A stretch of 64,000 nt of DNA from a virus (lineage: Duplodnaviria; Caudoviricetes), in IMG/VR virus record IMGVR_UViG_2795385551_000010, positions 1 through 64,000 of that record; one strand, given 5' to 3'. Position numbers and translations under genes: made by a program. Numbering within the stretch: the stretch's first letter is position 1; the number at the start of each line of letters is the position of its first letter. Below, in pieces: positions 18,511 to 47,556 of this stretch. The notes below the pieces were generated by a model, which worked only from the letters and a program-made list of their open reading frames with translations, searched no databases and was not told where the DNA came from.

Positions 18511-18556
18511 TGGTGGCCAGGGCCGGGATCGAACCGGCGACCTTCCGCTTTTCAGG
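18511..18556 (-). repeat. AICE att core: duplicated 3' 46 bp of tRNA-Phe
   Basis: Identical to 28246..28291 (tggtggccagggccgggatcgaaccggcgaccttccgcttttcagg). Confidence 0.97.
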
Positions 18557-18650
18557 TGGATAAAATGGCCACTGACCTGCGGTTTAACTGCTTTCGTACG
18601 TCAAATACGGCGCACTGAGCAGGTCCGACGCATTCAGTCTGTCTGACGAT

Positions 18651-20298: not shown

Positions 20299-21414
20299 GT
20301 GGCCATTTCGAGAGTTCAAAAGGAACGTTGGCTAAGCTCGTTGCGCGATGTTCATTTCGTCCTCGACGCACTACGCCACCAAACGAGCAACGCGGTTCGA
20401 CCCAACAGCTTCACTAAGAGCACACAGGCAGCTATGTGGCAGCTGCAGCCCGGCGACTTAGTTCGGAAATTCAACAACGAATCATCGACACAAGACCCAC
20501 GGCTGACCGCCGCCCTAGCCACCGCCGTTGACTCGGTTCGCAACTTCCTAGATCGCCCCCAACCTTGGACGACCAATCGAGTCAGTGAAGATCTCACGCT
20601 CGCCGTACCTTTGATCACAGCCGCTATGTCAGCTATCGCGCTAATATCACCAGACGACGAGACAGTCGCCCAAGTCGTCGACGAACTTGAACGAGATTAT
20701 TTACTTTCCCTCGCTGTCACCTTGACTGGTCAGGGCACGATCGCCCAGAAACTCTCTGAATGGGAGCGAGGCAATCAAGGCGACTACCTCGATATCGCAA
20801 GATTTAGCCTCGTTGCGGAGGGCGGCCCCGGACGTCTCCACATGCGCGACGTCCATGCGGCTACCGATGCGGGGATGACCACATACCTGTTCGGCGTGGG
20901 CTTCAAGACTCTCGACAAATACCCGCAGGTCCAATACATACTCTACAGCCAGTGGTTTACCTACATGTATGCCTTATGGGAAGAGCAATATCGAATCCGG
21001 TTGGCGACCGCACACGGCGCCGACGTCGACGGAAAACCCTGGGCGAGATTCGACATTAGCCACCAACTGTTCGGCGATATCCGGAACATCCGCAACGACG
21101 TCGTTCACAAGCATGGTGTCGTCGCGTCAAGCGCGGACAACTCCATCCTCACCTGGTTTACAAGCGACCATCGGATTGAGATATCCACTGAGCAGATGTT
21201 GTCGCTTGTAACGTCGTTTCCCCGAGAAGAGCTCCTGCAGAAGCCCACTCGCGCTCAACGGGGCAACCCGCAAAACCTGCCTTGGCCAGTCGAGCCCGAG
21301 CTTGTCGATGAGGTTCGCCAGCAGGCCGATCGTGTGGGGTTGACGCGAAAACAGAAGAAGGATATCGGAAATGAAGCTCTACGCCTCTGGCTCGCCGCCC
21401 ATCAATTACCTTGA
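20299..21414 (+). CDS. HEPN-motif protein with C-terminal ribbon-helix-helix-like domain
   Basis: EEQY...IRNIRNDVVH (Rx4H); C-terminal LPWPVEPELVDEVRQQADRVGLT...NEALRLWL. Confidence 0.7.
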   Translation: MAISRVQKERWLSSLRDVHFVLDALRHQTSNAVRPNSFTKSTQAAMWQLQPGDLVRKFNNESSTQDPRLTAALATAVDSVRNFLDRPQPWTTNRVSEDLTLAVPLITAAMSAIALISPDDETVAQVVDELERDYLLSLAVTLTGQGTIAQKLSEWERGNQGDYLDIARFSLVAEGGPGRLHMRDVHAATDAGMTTYLFGVGFKTLDKYPQVQYILYSQWFTYMYALWEEQYRIRLATAHGADVDGKPWARFDISHQLFGDIRNIRNDVVHKHGVVASSADNSILTWFTSDHRIEISTEQMLSLVTSFPREELLQKPTRAQRGNPQNLPWPVEPELVDEVRQQADRVGLTRKQKKDIGNEALRLWLAAHQLP

Positions 21415-21571
21415 CCTACAGTCTGATCAAACAGATAGAGCACCCGACGCTAGTGCCAGAGCTACTCCTGCTGGCGACGCGACAGTCCAATCACGCTGTG
21501 TTTCCTCAATAAAGCCTGATAGTCGGCTACTGTTCGTTTAGCTGCACAGGGCGATACACGGGAGGATCCGA

Positions 21572-22489
21572 ATGGCAGAGCGCACGCGCAAGATCGTCTT
21601 CGGCCGTATCAATCGACGTAATCCCGACCAAGAACCTCTAGAGATGCGAGAGTTTAGCGAGGATATGGCCGCGCTTGCGGAGAGCCATCTAACCTCGCAC
21701 GTCATACGGAGCACAGTTGGACACCCTGTTCGCCGGTGGATCGCTGGCGATATGACGATCACCCCCGGTGGAGACTTCTTAACCGGTGTCCTCGGATTTT
21801 CCGAACAGCAACTACACGTGACCTTCGATGATCAATCTTTCTCATGGATGAAAGCTGAAGTAGAAGATTCAGATACAGCGAATGAGCGCACGATTGCGCC
21901 CTTCGCAGTTGACCTTCGGGCAAAGCACCGATGGGTGGCATTCGCGACTACAGCTCGCCTGACTCCGCATGTTTCACGTAAGGGTTTCGAGCTTGTCCTC
22001 AATGAGGCTGTCTCAGCCCTCGGCCTGATGCCAACTACTTGGGAGGTCGATCTTGTGACCTCTACTGCGGTAATTGACAAGTGGTTAAGGCAAAACCCGC
22101 TTGTTCACCGGCTGCGCCGCACGTTGAAGTTCAGCAACCCAGGGAAAGACCTGGACGACGATCGCCGCCAGATGCGCGCCCTGGCTGCTAATCGGAAAAC
22201 CGAAGAGTTCAAGGCGGTAACGCGCGGGGTCTTGGACATCAACTCGCCGGAGTTTCGGAACAAGCTTGAGGGCACCGAGACGGGCGACCTTGACGTAGTA
22301 ATGGAGGCTCGCGGCCGCCATGGCGTGGGCAACGTCGTGTTCAACACCAGGGAGAGCGTCGACGCAAGTCGCGTTCCCGACTTCGGCGCGAACCTCCAGC
22401 ACGGCATCGACATCGTTCTGGCGGCGCTACGCGAGTACGTCGCGAGCAAGGAGCCACCCGAGCAACCGAGTCTCCTAGGCGATGAGTAG
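21572..22489 (+). CDS. Hypothetical soluble protein, DUF4747-like by eye
   Basis: GGAGG SD; beta-rich N-half, PFAVDLRAKHRWVAF, LRRTLKFSNP; family call tentative. Confidence 0.7.
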   Translation: MAERTRKIVFGRINRRNPDQEPLEMREFSEDMAALAESHLTSHVIRSTVGHPVRRWIAGDMTITPGGDFLTGVLGFSEQQLHVTFDDQSFSWMKAEVEDSDTANERTIAPFAVDLRAKHRWVAFATTARLTPHVSRKGFELVLNEAVSALGLMPTTWEVDLVTSTAVIDKWLRQNPLVHRLRRTLKFSNPGKDLDDDRRQMRALAANRKTEEFKAVTRGVLDINSPEFRNKLEGTETGDLDVVMEARGRHGVGNVVFNTRESVDASRVPDFGANLQHGIDIVLAALREYVASKEPPEQPSLLGDE

Positions 22490-22549
22490 TTCGCCTGGAT
22501 CGGTCCTCGTCGTTGTCAGTGGCTAGCGATACCGTGCATGTAGTCTTCG

Positions 22550-23116
22550 ATGCGAGGTGAAACGATGACCAGCGGTAGAGGGGTAATGCGCCACTTGTGG
22601 GATGCACTACGGCACATGACCCTAGGAGATCTCTTCCAGATCGACCTTCTGATTGGCGTGGTTGGCTGCGCCGGCGGGGTGATCCTCGGGCTCAAGTACC
22701 CCGAGCGTCTTGTCGGGGTCGTCAGCGTGACGGCTGGCGTTGTTGGTGTAGTAATTGGCGCGGTCATCGCTGGCGTCGCCATACAGTCTGCATTTATGGA
22801 TCAGTCTTTCTTGCGAAAGCTTCGAGCAATAAACCGCGATCCAGTCACTTACCTCACGCCCTTTCTATTCACCTCTGTCATTGGGATATTCGCTTTGCTT
22901 GGGCTACTTGCCTTGTCGGCGATACCTGCATCCGCTCCAGCCGCGGTCCTCGCCACCCTCGGTGGCTTCGTGGGCTTGCTCTCTTGCTGGGCTGTAGCCA
23001 GTCTGCTTCCAGGAATGGCCACTCTGATTCAGTTCGTTGGCCTCCGTCAGGATGCGATAGATGTCCCAGACGACGTGGACATCAAACCTATGCGCGCGAA
23101 CGGCACATCGCGATGA
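22550..23116 (+). CDS. 4-TM membrane protein
   Basis: Four hydrophobic helices; start may be a downstream ATG. Confidence 0.8.
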   Translation: MRGETMTSGRGVMRHLWDALRHMTLGDLFQIDLLIGVVGCAGGVILGLKYPERLVGVVSVTAGVVGVVIGAVIAGVAIQSAFMDQSFLRKLRAINRDPVTYLTPFLFTSVIGIFALLGLLALSAIPASAPAAVLATLGGFVGLLSCWAVASLLPGMATLIQFVGLRQDAIDVPDDVDIKPMRANGTSR

Positions 23117-23265
23117 GATCAAGCCAAGCGCCGCAAATCTTCGAGCGCGTCAACGCCTCTCAACAAGAGCTTGAGGCCATACGCCGTGAGGTTGAAGAAC
23201 TCAAGAAGCAAGCTAAGGCTCAGGTTCTCGCCACGTCGCGCACTCAGACTGAAGAAGTCGAATAA
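23113..23265 (+). CDS. 50-aa coiled-coil protein
   Basis: ATGA overlap; MRSSQAPQIFERVNASQQELEAIRREVEELKKQAK heptad pattern. Confidence 0.55.
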   Translation: MRSSQAPQIFERVNASQQELEAIRREVEELKKQAKAQVLATSRTQTEEVE

Positions 23266-23296: not shown

Positions 23297-24235
23297 TTAG
23301 TCGTCGTACCTCTCATGCAGAAATGAAATTAGTTGGGGCGTAACGTCTCTAGCACAGATGCGATGCCCTGCAAGTTCTGACAACACATCGTCAAGTTTCC
23401 ATTCGAACAGATGGTTGTACCGCGCGTTGTAGAGTGCTAAATGCTGGATGCCATACTCGGGCGGACTGAGCAGGCCGTAACAAACGACCTGGTATAACAA
23501 CCGTAAATCCAGCCCGTATCGCGGTGTCCCGTCTTGCTTTCGTCTGTCGACAATGGCCTTGATTTCGATTGTCCATGGCCCAGCCATGATATCGGCGTCA
23601 CCCGCCAGCGGGCCCATCATGGTGGTGTCCTCACGGTGGGGCCCACCACACTCCCGAATGAAGGGTATTAGGTTGTTCCTACTGGTGTTGTACAGAGCTG
23701 CAAGGTCTTTCAACTCATCCGCTCTCAAAGAATCTGAGCACCCGAACCATGTTTCAACGTCACACCCAGAGCTGGCCGATAGTGGAGATTGACGCAAATC
23801 GATGGCTCTACCGACCTCAGTGAAAAGCGCTAGCGCCCAGCATCCCCGGATCAGTTCCTCAATTATGTCTTGATCTTCGCCGCCGTTCCGCGACAAACAC
23901 TCGGCGATCTCACTGAGACGCGACGCGATGCTTTCGAATCGATCCATCCAGTCGGGACCATTCTTGCCACTTTGCACTTGAGCCCACGCTGCGCCGAGCG
24001 CCGCCGCCTCTGGGCGTTCGTCTGGCGTGACGGTAAATCGAACCAAATAGTCGAATGCCGTACCTATCGTGCCAACACGCGCGCCTTTCGGAGGCTCAAG
24101 ACACTTATTTACCACCGACTCGCGGAATTCTTTTTGAATCCTCTTTGTATTCGGCAGATGCGTGCAGAGCCAGTTTCGCAACGGGCTACCAGGGTCGTGA
24201 AGCTCTCCGGTAATGGAGCCTGCTATCGATGTCAT
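23297..24235 (-). CDS. PD-(D/E)XK nuclease-like protein
   Basis: GDADIMAGPWTIEIKA...QVVCYGLL (D-x-EIK, QxxxY; RecB-like arrangement). Confidence 0.7.
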   Translation of the reverse strand: MTSIAGSITGELHDPGSPLRNWLCTHLPNTKRIQKEFRESVVNKCLEPPKGARVGTIGTAFDYLVRFTVTPDERPEAAALGAAWAQVQSGKNGPDWMDRFESIASRLSEIAECLSRNGGEDQDIIEELIRGCWALALFTEVGRAIDLRQSPLSASSGCDVETWFGCSDSLRADELKDLAALYNTSRNNLIPFIRECGGPHREDTTMMGPLAGDADIMAGPWTIEIKAIVDRRKQDGTPRYGLDLRLLYQVVCYGLLSPPEYGIQHLALYNARYNHLFEWKLDDVLSELAGHRICARDVTPQLISFLHERYDD

Positions 24236-24991: not shown

Positions 24992-25378
24992 ATGGCGATA
25001 GACCGTCTCAATGACGTACCAGTGGCCGATGAGTTCTTCAGCCAGGTAGACGTAGTTCAGGTTCGTTCAAAGACAGAGTTCAGGGATGGGCAGGAGGTCG
25101 AGGCTCGAAATAAATCCGGTGAGTGCGGCTGGGTAGTGGATGCCTTGGTACGCACAGAGACTGGGGTACGAACTATCTCATGGACCGTCTGGGGTACCGA
25201 GCCAACGTACTCTGGCCCAGTCAAGCTGCGAGGTGTCCGTGCCGCCCCGTGGGCCACCGCACCGGGCAATGTTCGCCCAAAGACAGGGTTGTGGCTGTCG
25301 GTAGGATCTGTGGAACCCACGCCGTCTGTCTCAACCACTTCGCGCCGTCCTGCTGGCGGTGACCAAAATGCCGGTTAA
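24992..25378 (+). CDS. AICE small beta-rich protein (ssDNA-binding or Pra-like)
   Basis: AAGGAG SD; WVVDALV...VKLRGVRAAPW; directly upstream of ftsK. Confidence 0.65.
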   Translation: MAIDRLNDVPVADEFFSQVDVVQVRSKTEFRDGQEVEARNKSGECGWVVDALVRTETGVRTISWTVWGTEPTYSGPVKLRGVRAAPWATAPGNVRPKTGLWLSVGSVEPTPSVSTTSRRPAGGDQNAG

Positions 25379-26723
25379 GGCTATCGTCCTCAGTCTATTT
25401 GCCTTCCTCGTCGTCGGCGCCGTACTCCCAACGGATCTGCGGTTGGGTCTACTTCTGATAGCCGCCCTGGCGGCAATTGTGTGGGCGTTGATTCACTGGC
25501 AACGGTCCGCCGAGGTCCGGTCTAGTTTCGATCCTCCGCTTTCGACAGCCATCGAGTTGTTACAGTCTCCCAAGAAGTTTCAGAACCTTTGCCGCTCTGT
25601 GGGGCTCACTCACACCAGCAAGGCTCGAAGCGTCTGGTCCACGGCTATCGAGCCGGTGGAGCACCTACCGACAGTTGTCGGTAGCGCATTACCGACCCCG
25701 TACGGCGCATCGCTGGCCGTACTTCCGGCTCTGGGGCACTCGGTTGAGACATGGCAGTCAGCTGCGCCTCGGCTGCAAGCAGCTCTCTCTGTTCCTAGCA
25801 TTGTTGTGATCGATCGTTCCGATCACTTGGAGGTACAGCTGCGGGTCAAAGATCCGCTTAGTACGGATATCGTCGCCGATCACGTGATTCCGGCTTCTGA
25901 CCTATCGCTCGGGCTTGGCTTCGACGAAGACGGCAACTGGTTGTCGCTACCTGTGGCCAACACCGGCGGACTCGTGGTTGGCGGACTTCCCGGTTCTGGC
26001 AAAACAGCCTGGCTCACAGGGGTTTTCGCCGCGCTTGCCTCCAGCCCGCTGTGCCAATGGGTGCTAGTGGACGCGAAACACGGGCACGATTTGGCGGCTC
26101 TGGCACCCCGTTCATATCGGTACCTCGCCGCCGAAGCAGACCTGCTTGATGTCCGCGACGGACTTCGCGAAGTTCAACTGCTGATGAACCACCGCCGCAA
26201 GAACATGATCGAACTGATCGGTACGCCGAATTTCTGGTCGGCTCCGATCTCGCCATCGAACCCCGTTGTGTTCGTCGTCATCGATGAGGTTCAGCAGCTC
26301 CAGCCCACTGCATTCGTCACGAAGGAAGATAAGGCTCTGGCGACCGAGATCGACTTGTTAATAAGGGATCTGGTTCGTCTCGGGCGGAGCGCAGGCATCG
26401 TGGTTGTCCTGTCGACCCAACGTCCGACAGCAGACGCAATCAGTACCCCAATCCGCGACAACGCAGAGCTGCGGGTCTGCTTCAACGTCAGAAGCCGCGA
26501 GTCGGCTGTCGCTGTCCTCGGCGAATGGTCAACCGACGATCTCGTTTCCCCGCTCGGGCTGCCAACCGGCGTAGGCGTTGCATACGTCAACAGCGAACTA
26601 TGCAAATTTCGTGCACCTTTCACACCCGAGCCTGTCCTTGTGGAATCGGTATTACAGCACCGGCAGTTGACCGCCGATCCCCTTGACCTGCTGAGCCAAG
26701 CCCTATTCAACGCACCCGATTAA
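25359..26723 (+). CDS. FtsK/SpoIIIE DNA translocase (TraB-type)
   Basis: N-terminal TMs; Walker A GLPGSGKT; Walker B VVIDE; GRSAG...STQRP. Confidence 0.92.
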   Translation: MTKMPVKAIVLSLFAFLVVGAVLPTDLRLGLLLIAALAAIVWALIHWQRSAEVRSSFDPPLSTAIELLQSPKKFQNLCRSVGLTHTSKARSVWSTAIEPVEHLPTVVGSALPTPYGASLAVLPALGHSVETWQSAAPRLQAALSVPSIVVIDRSDHLEVQLRVKDPLSTDIVADHVIPASDLSLGLGFDEDGNWLSLPVANTGGLVVGGLPGSGKTAWLTGVFAALASSPLCQWVLVDAKHGHDLAALAPRSYRYLAAEADLLDVRDGLREVQLLMNHRRKNMIELIGTPNFWSAPISPSNPVVFVVIDEVQQLQPTAFVTKEDKALATEIDLLIRDLVRLGRSAGIVVVLSTQRPTADAISTPIRDNAELRVCFNVRSRESAVAVLGEWSTDDLVSPLGLPTGVGVAYVNSELCKFRAPFTPEPVLVESVLQHRQLTADPLDLLSQALFNAPD

Positions 26724-26821
26724 CCTCAGAAGACTCGGAAAGACGACATGAATTTCGTTCAGGCACAAGGAATCATCGCAAGATGGTTCCGCGTGAGCAT
26801 CGACCACCAGAAGGAAGCATC

Positions 26822-27055
26822 ATGACGGTACGCCAGCTCAGTACGAATACACGGGCCCCGGAAGATTTTCCCGAGCTGCTGACAGCCGACCAGGTAGCAG
26901 ATCTACTCGGCGTTTCCGCTGCCACGGTGAACCGCTGGGGCGCCTTACGAGACCAAGGCGAAGACGTCGGCCCGCCTTGCTATTCACTGTCTGATCGTGT
27001 CCGCCGCTGGGACGCAGCCGACGTGCGCAAGTGGATTCGCCAGGTTCGCCGATAG
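26822..27055 (+). CDS. xis: Excisionase / HTH DNA-binding protein
   Basis: LLTADQVADLLGVSAATVNRW...GPP...RW...DVRKWI; abuts int. Confidence 0.85.
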   Translation: MTVRQLSTNTRAPEDFPELLTADQVADLLGVSAATVNRWGALRDQGEDVGPPCYSLSDRVRRWDAADVRKWIRQVRR

Positions 27056-28213
27056 ATGGCAGGCTCGGTTCCTCGTGGTATACGCAAGCGCCTCAACAGT
27101 TCTGGCCAGCCTCGTTATCAGGTCCGTTACCTCGTGCGCGACCCGGCGACGACAACCGGCTGGACGGAAACATCCACCACGTTCGGTAGCCTCCGCGAGG
27201 CGCGGGCATTTAAGGCCGATCGTGATAACGAAACTGCACTCGGCACTCAACGGTTCGACCCCCGCCTTGGGAAAGCGACGTTAGATCGAATCTGGTTGCA
27301 GTACGGCGCCTCTAAACGACCCTCCGTGTCGCCCAAGACATGGAGTGGTTATGTGCAGCACTGGGAACTGCGCATCGCTCGCCGCTTGGGTCATATGCCT
27401 GTCGATGAAATCACCCGCCAGATGGTTCAAGAGTTCGTTGATTGCCTCACCGTGGGTCCGTGGGCCAAAGTCTCAACGCTTCGGCTGCTGCGCTCGATTT
27501 TGGAGGTCGCCCGGGAAGACGGCCGCATCCATCGCAATCCTGCGCAGGGAGTGTCGGCAGGGCGAATCCCGCCGCGTGAGCGCCATCGGTATCTCACGGC
27601 ATCCGAAGTCGTCAGCCTGTCCAGGGCATGTGGCGATCAGGGCGACGTAGTAGCGATCCTGGCTTACACGGGACTGCGCTGGTCCGAGCTGGTGGGCCTG
27701 CGTATTTGCGACGTGGACCTTGCCGCTCGCCGCCTGTACGTGCGCCGAGCAGCCCCTGAGGTCGATGGCCACATAATTGTCGGTCCGCCTAAGACCCGAG
27801 CCGCTGTTCGCACTGTTCCGCTGCCACAAGTTGTCATAGACGCCCTGACGCCGCGTATCGAGGGCCGCCCCGCCGATGAGCCAGCCGTTACGTCGCCGAA
27901 CGGCGCTATGCTCCGATCCAACAATTGGCGACGCCACACCCACTGGTCGAAGGCCCTTCAAGCCACCCAACTCGCGCCACTCACGATTCATGATCTCCGG
28001 CACACATACGCCAGCTTGGCCCGCGCCTCCGGCGCTGATCTCCGCTACGTCCAGAAGACCATGGGCCACTCGACGCCCACCGTGACCGCGAATATCTACA
28101 GCGACCTCTACTCAGACGAACTCGACCAGGTCGCAGTCAATCTTGACCGGCTTCATTCATCTGATTTGTCCACGAAGAACGGACAGAAACCGGACACCCA
28201 GAAACATCCATAG
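27056..28213 (+). CDS. int: Tyrosine integrase
   Basis: YTGLRWSE, PPKT, HDLRHT, MGHS, IY catalytic set; adjacent to att. Confidence 0.97.
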   Translation: MAGSVPRGIRKRLNSSGQPRYQVRYLVRDPATTTGWTETSTTFGSLREARAFKADRDNETALGTQRFDPRLGKATLDRIWLQYGASKRPSVSPKTWSGYVQHWELRIARRLGHMPVDEITRQMVQEFVDCLTVGPWAKVSTLRLLRSILEVAREDGRIHRNPAQGVSAGRIPPRERHRYLTASEVVSLSRACGDQGDVVAILAYTGLRWSELVGLRICDVDLAARRLYVRRAAPEVDGHIIVGPPKTRAAVRTVPLPQVVIDALTPRIEGRPADEPAVTSPNGAMLRSNNWRRHTHWSKALQATQLAPLTIHDLRHTYASLARASGADLRYVQKTMGHSTPTVTANIYSDLYSDELDQVAVNLDRLHSSDLSTKNGQKPDTQKHP

Positions 28214-28245: not shown

Positions 28246-28322
28246 TGGTGGCCAGGGCCGGGATCGAACCGGCGACCTTCCGCTTTTCAGGCGGACGCTC
28301 GTACCAACTGAGCTACCTGGCC
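28246..28322 (-). tRNA. tRNA-Phe(GAA)
   Basis: GGCCAGGTAGCTCAGTTGG...CTGAAAA...GGTTCGATCCC...CCA. Confidence 0.97.
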
Positions 28323-42371: not shown

Positions 42372-44450
42372 CTAACCCATCTTGTAAAGACCAAAGAAAC
42401 CAGAACCGGCCTGATACGTCATATTCGCCGTACCCGACTTGGAACCCAATCCATTGTTCTTAATAGGCAGCGTGTAACCGAGCTGCACCACGTCGCCAGC
42501 ACTCAAACGAATGAACTCCGGCTTATCCCAATACAGGCTGATGGTGCCACCGCCAGAACCGTCATTACCGGCCGGAATAGTCTGCTGTTCCTGAGACACC
42601 AACGGAATATGGTTGGTGGTATTCACAACCACATCCGACGTTGGCGTACCATTAGCAACAATGCTCGATGCATTGGTAGACCAGGAAGTCCACGGAAAAT
42701 CGTAATGAACGTAATAAAGTCCAGGATTATTGACAGTGATCGAACCAGCCGAAACATTAATCGTAACGTCATCCGATGCGAAATTCTGCACACCATAGAA
42801 ACCAGACGGCAGGACGCCAGAGAACGTCGTAGAACTGCCCTGAGGCAGCGTGAACGAATGAGAAGGTCCGTTTATCGTAGACCCGCCATTCCGGGTCATC
42901 TTCCCGCCGCTGTAAAACGTCGTCTTAGCGTAGAAGTCGCCAAAGAACAGAGACGCCAGCCGGAACGAATCGTAAAGATGGTTACCGTCGAACCAGCCAC
43001 CGCTAGCAGTCTTACGCTGCATAACAATCGCCCCGCCAGTGCGGTTAGACGCGCCCGTCGTCACCGAGCTATCCGTAGCAGTCGCCTTAACGTCGCCACC
43101 AACATCGAGTACCCAGTTATTCGTCTTGCGGTACACCGTCGCCGAAAGCCCCTGACCAAATGGCCCATACCACGAAATGAACGGGCTATTAAACGTGAAT
43201 GTCCCGCCAGACCGCGAATACTTACCGACAATTGCCTGTTGGCCATTAATGCCGAAATATGCCCCGGTCGTGTATCCGGTATCCGAGCTGAACAACACAT
43301 AGGTAGCAATTGAATTCAAGCCACCCGCATCACCCAAGGTCACGGTCACCTGAACATCGTCAGTAGTAGCCACCTTATTGTTCGTTGCGTAGTAGGTTCC
43401 ATCACCCCTAGACGCATCAATACCGCAATATCCATTTCCGGTACGAATCTTCAAATCGGAGCCCGTAAACTCCGCTGGCAAGGCCGCACCGTCCGCGCCA
43501 CCGAACGTCGTAATATAATTCAACAACCCAGACGGCACCGTGGCCTGCTGACGCTGATACTGCGCCTGAATAGCAGAGGTAGCCGCCGCAGCCTGAGCCG
43601 CAGTCTGCGCAACCTGAATAGCTTGGTTCTTAGCATCAGTATTGGAGAAACCGTTACCGGCCAAACCAAGACCATTTACGAACGCATCGCGAACCGTGTT
43701 AATCCCCGTGATTACCTCGGCAATAGTTCCCGACGTAATCTTGGAAGCATCCAAGCCAGGGATAAAAGACGCCAACAAAGTGCCGAACAACTTAGTAGCA
43801 TCGAACAGCCCGTTAGTCGCAAGGTTCTGCAACCGGGTGACCACATCACCGACCACCGCCCCGGCCTTACCGGCGATACCGTCAAACCAGCTCTGCAACC
43901 CGGAAATCATCGAGACAACGAATTGGCCAGACGTGATCTTAGAAGCGTCCAAACCGGGAATGACCGCAGCGGCCAACAGGCCAATCACCTTAGCCGCATC
44001 CAAGTTCGACGCGGCCGTCAACAACTGCTGAACCCAGTTAGTGACCTGAGCATCAGTCGCCCCAGTAAGCCCAGTCAGCGCGTCCCTAAGCCACTTCAAC
44101 CCAAGGAACGAATCAACCGCCTTCTCAAAAGCGTCCGCTAGGTCATTCCACCGCTGCGTCACGAATGCCGTCAGATCAGTCAACCCACCCGGCGAGCCCG
44201 TAACCGCCTTAGTGATAAGGCTGACCAGCGTGCCTAGATCCTGAAACCCATGAAGGATGTTCGTGAAGAACGTCAAAGATGCGTTCTGCCAAGACGTATC
44301 GCCCTGGACCTGATTGCGGTAGAAGTCGGTAACGGCGGTCTGCGTCCGGCCCGCCAATCCAGACAGGTCCGGCGCATCCCCCTTACCGTCAACCCAGCCC
44401 GCCAGCCAGCCGCCAGGATCAAGCCCGGCGACACCGCTAGGCATCGTCAT
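42372..44450 (-). CDS. Minor tail protein (probable receptor-binding)
   Basis: MTMPSG start; IPGLDASKITSG repeats; beta-rich C-terminus. Confidence 0.85.
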   Translation of the reverse strand: MTMPSGVAGLDPGGWLAGWVDGKGDAPDLSGLAGRTQTAVTDFYRNQVQGDTSWQNASLTFFTNILHGFQDLGTLVSLITKAVTGSPGGLTDLTAFVTQRWNDLADAFEKAVDSFLGLKWLRDALTGLTGATDAQVTNWVQQLLTAASNLDAAKVIGLLAAAVIPGLDASKITSGQFVVSMISGLQSWFDGIAGKAGAVVGDVVTRLQNLATNGLFDATKLFGTLLASFIPGLDASKITSGTIAEVITGINTVRDAFVNGLGLAGNGFSNTDAKNQAIQVAQTAAQAAAATSAIQAQYQRQQATVPSGLLNYITTFGGADGAALPAEFTGSDLKIRTGNGYCGIDASRGDGTYYATNNKVATTDDVQVTVTLGDAGGLNSIATYVLFSSDTGYTTGAYFGINGQQAIVGKYSRSGGTFTFNSPFISWYGPFGQGLSATVYRKTNNWVLDVGGDVKATATDSSVTTGASNRTGGAIVMQRKTASGGWFDGNHLYDSFRLASLFFGDFYAKTTFYSGGKMTRNGGSTINGPSHSFTLPQGSSTTFSGVLPSGFYGVQNFASDDVTINVSAGSITVNNPGLYYVHYDFPWTSWSTNASSIVANGTPTSDVVVNTTNHIPLVSQEQQTIPAGNDGSGGGTISLYWDKPEFIRLSAGDVVQLGYTLPIKNNGLGSKSGTANMTYQAGSGFFGLYKMG

Positions 44451-44911
44451 TAGCCGCCCCCCTCCATGCGTGCACGAGCCTCACGGAGCCGCGAAACGCT
44501 ATCGAGAAGACGGCCCTCGAATTCCTTAAGCGCAGCCTCATGGTCACCCGGCCCAACCTGCGCAACCTCGGCAGCAATCTCCGGGAACTGCTCAGCCGCC
44601 ATAGCCGCCGCATGCGCAACCAATTCGTCCGGATCGCTCGTCAACTCCCCAATCGAGAAATTCCTAAGCGGCCCAGTCGGAGGCTTAATCCACTTCGTCT
44701 GCTTATCCGCATGGAACCGGCACCCGAAATCCCACAACATCTGAGACAGGGCAGGCCAACATTGCGGAGGAATAAGCGGCTGATTCCGGTACTTCCCTTC
44801 CCCCTTATCGCGAGGGTCGGGAATACCGGCCGAAAACATCCAAGCAAAAGCTTCCTGCGGATCATCCAAATTAGACTCGGCTTGAGTCTTAGACATTACT
44901 AGTTCCCCCAA
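44450..44911 (-). CDS. Minor tail protein (DUF2744-like)
   Basis: DDPQEAFAW...SQMLWDFGCRFH...QTKW. Confidence 0.8.
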   Translation of the reverse strand: MGELVMSKTQAESNLDDPQEAFAWMFSAGIPDPRDKGEGKYRNQPLIPPQCWPALSQMLWDFGCRFHADKQTKWIKPPTGPLRNFSIGELTSDPDELVAHAAAMAAEQFPEIAAEVAQVGPGDHEAALKEFEGRLLDSVSRLREARARMEGGG

Positions 44912-44914
44912 TAA

Positions 44915-46678
44915 CTAACTTTGAACCAAATGGACACCCACGTTGTTCAAAGCCTCACTCATCTTTTTGGCCAAACGAGCCATACGCTCACCAATAGACA
45001 TCGCGCGATCAGACTTACCGGCTTTCAGCACCCACGAAAGCGGATGCTTACTGTCCGAGTGATCCCACGCAGCCGTCATTTCTTCCAACTGATTCACCCA
45101 AATAATGTGTTCAATACCCTTGGACTGGACCGTTGAACCAAGACGCTGACCGATATCGATATGCAGACCGGGAATAATCCACGAGTCATGCAACGCCATC
45201 AGATGCGTAGTCTCAGCCCGCCCGACAAGGAACCCGCCACGCAATGCAGAAAGCGCACTCAACGACCACGCATTGTTTTCCGCACCCTGCTGGTACAGCT
45301 CCATGTAATGGCACCAGCCCAATTGCGTAGCACGTCCGGTGTTTTTCCATTCGAGCCACGCGGCAATGGTGCCTACAATGAAAGGCATGATTATGTCAGC
45401 GGCAATAGTTCCCGCACTAGAGAAACCGCCAAGCAAGAAATAGCCCAACAGGTTTCCCGTAGTTTCAATGATCAGCTTCGCAATAGCGTCTGCTGCCGGG
45501 TTATCGCCGCCCACCACAACCGAAACGTTTTTCGCCGGACCCCAACTAAGATCGCTCGACTCAATCGGCGTCCACTCGTTATCGCGCACTACCAACCAGG
45601 GCTGCTTAGCCATCGTGCCCAGCCAGCCCGTCTGGTAATACTCGTCAGGCTGCAACGTCTGGTCGTCAGAAACAACGCTCAACGTGTCCTCAACGAACCC
45701 GCCACCATAAGTAATCACCGAACGCGCAAAGCCGTCCAGAATCGTGCCCTCAAAGAACGTGCCACCCAGCGCGGTAGCATTCGAGTTATCGACAACCTCG
45801 AACACGAGAGCGCCATTAGCGACCCGCCCAAGCGGTGCACTGATCAAACCGTCAACCGTTTCGCCGTCATCCGACAAAACACGCCGATACGTCATCGTCA
45901 ACTGCGCATCATCAAGCGAATCCGCGATAACCGCGTCCACCGGATTCATGCGAGCTGACATGAAACTCCATAAGCTCGAATCGTCCAATAGCCACGGGCT
46001 GCATTTAATGTGCGTCTGCCACGATGACCAATCAATTGTCGTGCCCCAAGACTGCAAGTCGAATGGATCATCCGGCAGCGTGAAGGGGTGACCCTCAATC
46101 CGAAATAGGTTGATAAAAATTAATGCAGAAATGCACCATTTACTGGGGCCAGCCAGCGCGAAAATTCGCGGGAATTGAAAAAGCGGGATAGGCAATAGCG
46201 GATTAGGCGGGCACAAAATATATTGCAAATGGGTAAGCTCGTCGTTAAACGTAACTTCCAAATACTTAACGTGATCCTTTGACTTAACAGTCCAGTGATC
46301 CAGCAGACCCGACCAACGTTTCTTGCCACCGTAGAAATCAACGGTGACAACAACGTTCTTTTTGTAATCAGGATTGTTAGGCAGTTGCTTCAACCACATT
46401 GACATGTAGTGGTCATCCCGCAATTCCAAAACACCCTGAGTAGGCGTGTTGTTCTTAAACGGGAACGAACCCCTAATCGAATCGTCATAGTCGACGCGGC
46501 CCACATAAATCAGCCCCGGAGCCCCCGTAGGGTCATTCATCCAAAACCGGATCAACGGCTTAGCGCGCCGAAACGCCCAATGTTGCGCCCGCTGCTCGTC
46601 AGCCTTAGCCTCAATGGCCTTAAACGCCTTCCACGGATCGTTACCGTGGTCAGACATCAGACTTACCCAGTCGCTCAC
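44915..46678 (-). CDS. Minor tail protein (L5 gp28-like hub)
   Basis: RWSG...PNPLLP..QFPR; GTGA overlap. Confidence 0.88.
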   Translation of the reverse strand: MSDWVSLMSDHGNDPWKAFKAIEAKADEQRAQHWAFRRAKPLIRFWMNDPTGAPGLIYVGRVDYDDSIRGSFPFKNNTPTQGVLELRDDHYMSMWLKQLPNNPDYKKNVVVTVDFYGGKKRWSGLLDHWTVKSKDHVKYLEVTFNDELTHLQYILCPPNPLLPIPLFQFPRIFALAGPSKWCISALIFINLFRIEGHPFTLPDDPFDLQSWGTTIDWSSWQTHIKCSPWLLDDSSLWSFMSARMNPVDAVIADSLDDAQLTMTYRRVLSDDGETVDGLISAPLGRVANGALVFEVVDNSNATALGGTFFEGTILDGFARSVITYGGGFVEDTLSVVSDDQTLQPDEYYQTGWLGTMAKQPWLVVRDNEWTPIESSDLSWGPAKNVSVVVGGDNPAADAIAKLIIETTGNLLGYFLLGGFSSAGTIAADIIMPFIVGTIAAWLEWKNTGRATQLGWCHYMELYQQGAENNAWSLSALSALRGGFLVGRAETTHLMALHDSWIIPGLHIDIGQRLGSTVQSKGIEHIIWVNQLEEMTAAWDHSDSKHPLSWVLKAGKSDRAMSIGERMARLAKKMSEALNNVGVHLVQS

Positions 46679-47556
46679 AGCGTCACCCCCGGACGCGACC
46701 ACGGACGCGAGAACCAACGCGGAACCGTGAGCTTGATAGCGCCGCCCTGCGCCGCATCCTTAAGACGAACCGGCACATCGCCGCCCTTACCGGGCATCAG
46801 CGGATAGAGAAGGTCATTGCCCTTCCACCTGTGCTGAGTCGGCATTCCATTGGCCGAAATAAGCGTCTGCACGCGCGGATCAGAATCCGCAGATACATGC
46901 TCACCGGCCACCAAAGCGGGCAACGGAATAGTCCGGCCCACATCATCAAGGCCCCGCGAATACATGTCATTGCCCCACGAAAAGTCAGGCAATACCCACG
47001 TACCCGGAGCCGTACAAACCCACCGCAACCACACCGGCACATCGCCGTCATTGCGAATCGGGAACTTAGTAAAGTCATCCGTGTGAAGGGTTTCCCAAAC
47101 GTATTCCTTGGGCTCCTCCTGCCAATACGGGAACGTAGACGTAACCGTCATGACAATCGGGTTATCCGCAGTGATATGCGGATCTTTTTCGTAGTAAGGC
47201 TTAGGCTCTTCCATGAGCCGCACATTCAGCCAACGAGTACCGTCGCTAGTGGTAACCCTTATCGTTGATTCTTCGTCGTAGTCCCAAGCCCAACGCCAAG
47301 CCGAATCAATAGACGCCCACGTATCCGGATCGGCGTCCCACGCCTGAACCGAAAAAACAATCTCGCGGCGCTGCACACGCTTACCCGCGTATTCCTCACC
47401 AAACGGACCAGGAACGTAAAGCGTCTTAACCGGCGCGTCATAAAACTGTTGCAAGTTCGGGGAAAGGGTCACCCCCTGCTTCCCCATGCCGGGACCAGAC
47501 AGAACCCAATGGGAACCATCCCGACCCGTCAATTCAATTTTCAGGAAATCGGTCAC
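46675..47556 (-). CDS. Distal tail protein (L5 gp27-like)
   Basis: ELTGRDGSHW...WVLPDFSW...PRWFSRPW; follows TMP. Confidence 0.88.
   Translation of the reverse strand: MTDFLKIELTGRDGSHWVLSGPGMGKQGVTLSPNLQQFYDAPVKTLYVPGPFGEEYAGKRVQRREIVFSVQAWDADPDTWASIDSAWRWAWDYDEESTIRVTTSDGTRWLNVRLMEEPKPYYEKDPHITADNPIVMTVTSTFPYWQEEPKEYVWETLHTDDFTKFPIRNDGDVPVWLRWVCTAPGTWVLPDFSWGNDMYSRGLDDVGRTIPLPALVAGEHVSADSDPRVQTLISANGMPTQHRWKGNDLLYPLMPGKGGDVPVRLKDAAQGGAIKLTVPRWFSRPWSRPGVTL

Follow-up and report, generated by a model that had tools for sequence, protein, structure and literature searches.

In the cases of lambda RexA, Sbash gp30 and CarolAnn gp44, a weak match to DUF4747 is the common feature, and each of these proteins is paired with a protein of four transmembrane (TM) helices; the pairs exclude phages, probably through membrane depolarisation (PMC6426596, PMC6426606). 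Five Rex-like systems have been characterised, all of which exclude phages, and the mechanism of lambda RexAB is unsettled (PMC12894663, 2026). A 'DUF4747/CarolAnn prophage system' is also listed among immune operons (PMC13373217). Here we describe a pair of genes, A and B, in a 64,000-nucleotide stretch of viral DNA (hereafter the window; positions 1 to 64,000 of the IMG/VR record IMGVR_UViG_2795385551_000010). Gene A (21572..22489, + strand) encodes a 305-amino-acid (aa) soluble protein of the DUF4747 superfamily with a predicted RexA/RdgC-like fold, and gene B (22565..23116, + strand) a membrane protein of 183 aa, predicted to have four TM helices, whose central loop is highly conserved. 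They are followed by open reading frame (ORF) C (23113..23265, + strand; 50 aa, charged, coiled-coil-like), a doubtful gene that lies outside the conserved module. An earlier note on this DNA, made from the letters alone, had placed these three co-oriented ORFs correctly and had taken them for a candidate new three-gene anti-phage system. Our analysis instead favors a RexAB-like module of two genes for phage exclusion (abortive infection), with the DUF4747 plus four-TM composition, a reading to which we assign a probability of about two in three. What remains of the earlier proposal is a candidate membrane-linked defence module, composed of a DUF4747-type soluble protein and a four-TM protein and carried as the cargo of an integrative element. 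The claim of a new system does not hold, since a DUF4747 protein with a four-TM partner is the published architecture of RexAB, Sbash gp30-31 and CarolAnn gp44-43 (PMC6426596, PMC6426606, PMC11077077).

The evidence that A belongs to the DUF4747 superfamily (Pfam PF15931) is indirect but strong. Scans of A, B and C against Pfam, PADLOC, NCBIfam and PHROG gave nothing meaningful, A and 30 close homologues had no hmmscan match to PF15931.10, and a search of the window's own record with the DUF4747 hidden Markov model (HMM) was also negative. Precomputed matches to PF15931.11 are nevertheless recorded for many close homologues of A, several of them at E<=1e-5. The A profile also reached distant full-length relatives, and an alignment of 32 of them (A2) matched the A family over 281 columns in hhalign (probability 99.9%, E 1.4e-33), and nine of these 32 relatives match PF15931.10 directly (best E 2.6e-8). 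A protein atlas places A among DUF4747 clusters, with a score of 0.96, 219 of 256 features shared and a structural TM-score of 0.70-0.73. At the profile level, the 'DUF4747-like' label that A had been given therefore holds.

The predicted structure of A points to RexA. The AlphaFold2 (AF2) model, built with 30 sequences, has a predicted local distance difference test score (pLDDT) of 88.9 and a predicted TM-score (pTM) of 0.84. Its best match in a Foldseek search of the PDB is lambda RexA (8TWQ; E 2.6e-5, probability 1.0), followed by Escherichia coli RdgC (2OWL/2OWY), and two independent searches agreed on lambda RexA as the top PDB hit. The matches in BFVD are uncharacterised phage proteins (E 1e-13, TM-score ~0.5) and then phage RdgC. 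A search of the PDB sequences with an HMM of the A profile returned chance matches to TatD only (E 0.5). The structural relatives named in the RexA structure paper include RdgC as well as IML3 and CHL4 of the yeast kinetochore (PMC11077077). The profile and structure searches that the earlier note had proposed as a check have thus provided both the DUF4747 link and a cytoplasmic partner with a predicted RexA/RdgC fold.

The predicted four-TM character of B, already noticed in the earlier reading, was recovered in two ways. A hydropathy scan revealed four hydrophobic segments (residues 23-46, 55-73, 100-118 and 126-155), and the AF2 model (pLDDT 84.7) consists of an N-terminal amphipathic helix followed by four helices (26-44, 46-77, 93-119 and 126-165). 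In the alignment of B homologues (A3), conservation peaks in the loop that joins helices 2 and 3, where the motifs FMDQxFLRKLRAI and PFLFT occur. No Pfam family matches B, and its model found nothing in the PDB at E<=0.001 with Foldseek. Although the longest ORF of gene B begins at 22550, the start is most likely the ATG at 22565, because this codon has a Shine-Dalgarno sequence (GAGGTG) 5 nucleotides (nt) upstream, an identical 183-aa protein is on record, and the N-termini of the homologues agree with it. The ATG of gene A is likewise preceded, 6 nt upstream, by a Shine-Dalgarno sequence (GGGAGG). Both genes are real, as the homologue clusters number 118 for A (at 90% identity) and 114 for B, mostly in Actinomycetota; an exhaustive profile search with A yielded 208 representatives at 50% identity.

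The conservation of the gene pair, which had been suggested as a check, is complete among the related loci with a full downstream flank. The A profile identified 17 genome loci, 15 of them with the full downstream flank, and seven further contigs bring the number of loci with this flank to 22. A and B are adjacent and co-oriented in all 22 (15/15 and 7/7), so that a small four-TM partner stands immediately beside A on the same strand as part of a conserved pair. In each of the 15 genome loci, the B homologue starts 55-100 nt after A. More widely, the homologues of A and B share contigs and bear neighbouring locus tags. The count of 15 takes in one locus (L005) in which the B homologue is interrupted. 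There, in a metagenome-assembled genome of an uncultured Actinomycetota member, an insertion of ~2.8 kb of the IS21 family (L005 9239-12043; IstB, E 1.8e-72) splits the gene.

The genes around the pair are different from locus to locus. An integrase lies upstream of the pair in L019, and HTH_17 and Prim-Pol genes lie downstream in L020. The pair is near an integrase fragment beside dcd in L021, L022 and L024, and it is flanked by transposases in L026. In L027, a complete FtsK-DUF2637-RepSA-Xis-Int module of an actinomycete integrative and conjugative element (AICE) is located directly upstream. As the neighbours vary while A and B stay together, the mobile unit is the A-B pair. Pairing of the A-B type goes back a long way. 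Behind each of three distant DUF4747 relatives comes a partner of 176-184 aa, with overlapping stop and start codons, and these partners have three to four hydrophobic segments in the scan used for B. One of them is homologous to B (hhalign probability 94.9%, E 4.4e-8, 98 columns), and a second gave a weak hhalign signal. In one of these three distant loci, L028 (2907-7454), a divergent HTH_3 gene is succeeded in order by an unannotated 226-aa gene with no Pfam match, the DUF4747 gene and its membrane partner, and then by genes for an M78/IrrE-like protein and a serine recombinase, a prophage-like layout reminiscent of lambda cI-rexA-rexB.

The same 22 loci hold no counterpart of ORF C, not even in the relatives whose A is 70-74% identical. 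Both tblastn and blastn searches downstream of B in 20 related loci failed to find a C match or a consistent small ORF, and the gene calls of the seven further contigs include no third co-oriented gene after B. The module is therefore a duo rather than the proposed trio, and ORF C would be at best lineage-specific. A true three-gene system, with the 50-aa coiled-coil product of ORF C as a lineage-specific regulator or adaptor of A-B, is in our judgement highly improbable. The start of C does overlap the stop of B as ATGA, which would permit the translational coupling named in the earlier note; C itself was confirmed neither as a gene nor as a component of the module. Its codon-position G+C content (0.67/0.37/0.55) fits coding but is not decisive. 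C has no Shine-Dalgarno sequence, its Pfam scan produced only chance-level coiled-coil matches, and the RNA fold of the region carries no structure signal (z -0.07). Across B, the C frame runs for 222 codons with no stop, as is common in GC-rich DNA, and its codon-position G+C content there is non-coding-like (0.62/0.66/0.44, compared with 0.65/0.45/0.61 in the B frame). Some gene callers do predict C on seven assembled contigs. The exact sequence is on record from these automated calls in Logan assemblies only, whereas NCBI records also contain those of A and B.

The combination of a soluble protein and a four-TM protein had also been compared with Kiwa (KwaA/KwaB). The likeness is limited to this general layout. 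In Kiwa, the membrane gene KwaA comes first, while here the soluble gene A does. The PADLOC library includes Kiwa models, yet A, B and C match no PADLOC family at E<=1, a Pfam scan for DUF4868 (KwaB) was negative, and no solved structure matched the model of B significantly. Kiwa was rejected on the lack of a model match and the opposite gene order, and the analogy was abandoned. A Kiwa-like mode of action would involve a membrane sensor of phage attachment and a soluble DNA-binding effector that blocks replication with no depolarisation. It would suit the predicted fold of A, which is of a DNA-binding type, and the cytoplasmic partner is the effector in Butters (PMC7542560); given the sequence and gene-order differences, we still attach very little weight to it.

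The pair is part of a 9.8-kb integrative element, probably conjugative, which is bounded by two copies of a 50-nt direct repeat corresponding to the 3' part of tRNA-Phe. The left copy (attL, 18511..18560) is identical at 49 of 50 positions to the right copy (attR, 28246..28295), which lies inside tRNA-Phe beside Xis and Int. Between them are the gene for a Rep protein (PF23343; 18753-20297), a gene of 371 aa (20299-21414), A, B and ORF C, a convergent gene of 312 aa on the - strand (23297-24235), two small genes, an FtsK-like ATPase gene (25359-26723), an HTH_17 excisionase-like gene (Xis, 26783-27055) and a tyrosine integrase gene (Int, 27056-28213). Because the repeats enclose Rep, A, B, the FtsK-like gene, Xis and Int, A-B is a cargo of this element, which bears out the 'AICE cargo slot' of the earlier note. 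The HEPN and nuclease genes reported to flank that slot fared differently. The 371-aa gene, the supposed HEPN(-RHH) gene, matched nothing in Pfam or PADLOC at E<=0.01, so that this part was not upheld, while the nuclease finds weak support in a PADLOC match of the 312-aa gene to PDLC03797, a model of a reverse-transcriptase-associated PD-(D/E)xK nuclease (E 2.2e-5, residues 212-307). This gene is possibly another defence-type cargo gene.

The location of the pair raises the question of whether it serves the element rather than phage defence. It could act in addiction or stabilisation, with a toxic B restrained by A, or as a modulator of the excision or transfer switch. The pair is always on or beside integrative elements and often near int/xis. 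RexA, moreover, biases the bistable lysogeny-lysis switch of lambda without RexB (PMC11077077; bioRxiv 10.1101/2021.04.19.439022), and the RexA:RexB ratio controls toxicity, as discussed in the Butters paper (PMC7542560). However, the pair also persists where the element has decayed to an integrase fragment or where only insertion sequences (IS) flank it, and it moves between unrelated backbones (AICE, prophage-like and IS), a behaviour typical of defence cargo and not of a core function of the element. Phage exclusion is common to the five Rex-like pairs characterised so far (PMC12894663), and we regard a service to the element as rather unlikely. Participation in AICE transfer or spread was rejected, because the pair is also found outside AICEs.

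The region upstream of A offers a possible control element. A 157-nt gap precedes A in the window, and the upstream sequences of the related loci are unalignable except for a single conserved block, GGnTAnnGTnCG, found at 21525-21536 in the window and in L019, L020, L021 and L001. This block sits 35-45 nt before the A start. It may represent a -10 element, possibly together with an operator, and the candidate hexamer TACTGT (TAnnGT) is at 21528..21533 on the + strand, 38 nt before the start codon of gene A. A consensus scan for promoters and terminators scored nothing above shuffled sequences. The -10-like block suggests that A-B has its own promoter, as Sbash 30/31 does, and we consider this probable.

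Based on these comparisons, a RexAB-like A-B module could work as follows. A would be a cytoplasmic protein of the RexA/RdgC fold, probably dimeric and DNA-binding, which would sense an infecting phage through phage DNA, a protein-DNA intermediate or a phage protein. For RexA and RexApp, a clamp-like dimer that encloses DNA is reported. A would then activate B, probably through the conserved cytoplasmic central loop of B, and B would dissipate the membrane potential, leading to a fall in ATP and to the abortion of phage growth. ORF C would have no part in this system. Our confidence in the direction of signalling between A and B is lower than that in the RexAB-like reading itself. A more far-reaching proposal is that A-B might act beyond phages on incoming DNA in general, for instance by shutting out rival conjugative elements, or that C might be a third subunit, confined to this lineage, by which the trigger is retuned. 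Either would make A-B functionally novel among Rex-type systems, but we consider this improbable. As a RexAB-like module, A-B would be an expected type of cargo that introduces no new principle.

The surroundings of the element indicate the likely host. IMG/VR lists the source record as a provirus of 102.9 kb, and a prophage adjoins the element from ~28.7 kb onward. Over 4.3 kb, its minor-tail region (42372-46717) shares 96.9% identity with the Mycobacterium phages Aegeus and Baudelaire, which shows the prophage to be a phage of known type. Both phages were isolated on Mycobacterium chelonae, and the likeness of the prophage to them therefore places the host in that group. The host of A-B is most likely of the Mycobacteroides type. 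In M. chelonae-group mycobacteria, prophage- and element-borne defences influence which therapeutic phages work. A-B, once assayed, would also link the DUF4747 family, which is large and uncharacterised, with a phenotype.

At the sequence level, A-B stands apart from the described systems. A and B have no match at E<=1 to the RexA and RexB models of Pfam and PADLOC. The hhalign probability was 0.1% for the A-family profile or A2 against a 22-sequence RexA alignment, with single-sequence RexA also negative, and 0.9% for A3 against RexB, so that sequence homology to lambda RexA (PF15969) or RexB (PF15968) was not detected. The profiles gave hhalign probabilities of <=0.2% against CarolAnn gp44 and gp43, and homology to the CarolAnn pair of the CarolAnn-Sbash family was likewise not detected. 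Nor did a tblastn search of 50,697 phage records with A and one distant relative find a match. The silence of PADLOC on A-B is uninformative, because its Rex models detect the lambda RexA/RexB control and miss the validated CarolAnn pair. In the Pfam scan, lambda RexA itself matched PF15969 only, without DUF4747, and the bridge between DUF4747 and RexA therefore rests on the weak HHpred match in the literature and on the fold match.

In organisation, A-B resembles lambda RexA/RexB in several respects. A soluble gene is followed by a membrane gene on the same strand, the soluble partner has ~280-305 aa with RexA (8TWQ; PF15969) as the best structural match ahead of RdgC, the membrane partner has four TM helices, and the carrier is a temperate mobile element. 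The two pairs differ in that A-B resides on an element with Rep and an FtsK-like gene, whereas the lambda pair belongs to the prophage immunity operon behind cI, and in that B has 183 aa while RexB (PF15968) has 144. RexABpp of Pseudomonas putida (PP_5643/PP_5644; PMC12894663), which is on a prophage, belongs to another phylum. The host phylum of A-B is shared with Sbash gp30/gp31, CarolAnn gp44/gp43 and Butters gp30/gp31. Like A-B, the Sbash and CarolAnn pairs consist of a DUF4747-related cytoplasmic protein followed by a four-TM protein, of 165-178 aa. Sbash gp31 depends critically for its function on its central cytoplasmic loop (PMC6426596), and in B conservation is highest in the central loop. 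Sbash gp30 and CarolAnn gp44 differ from A in their length of ~370 aa and in their weak HHpred matches to DUF4747, and the A family appears to be nearer to core DUF4747 than are the Sbash and CarolAnn proteins that have been tested. The actinobacterial DUF4747-four-TM subfamily to which A-B belongs rides small, probably conjugative integrative elements rather than phages, and A-B is most likely a mycobacterial relative of the RexAB/CarolAnn-type systems.
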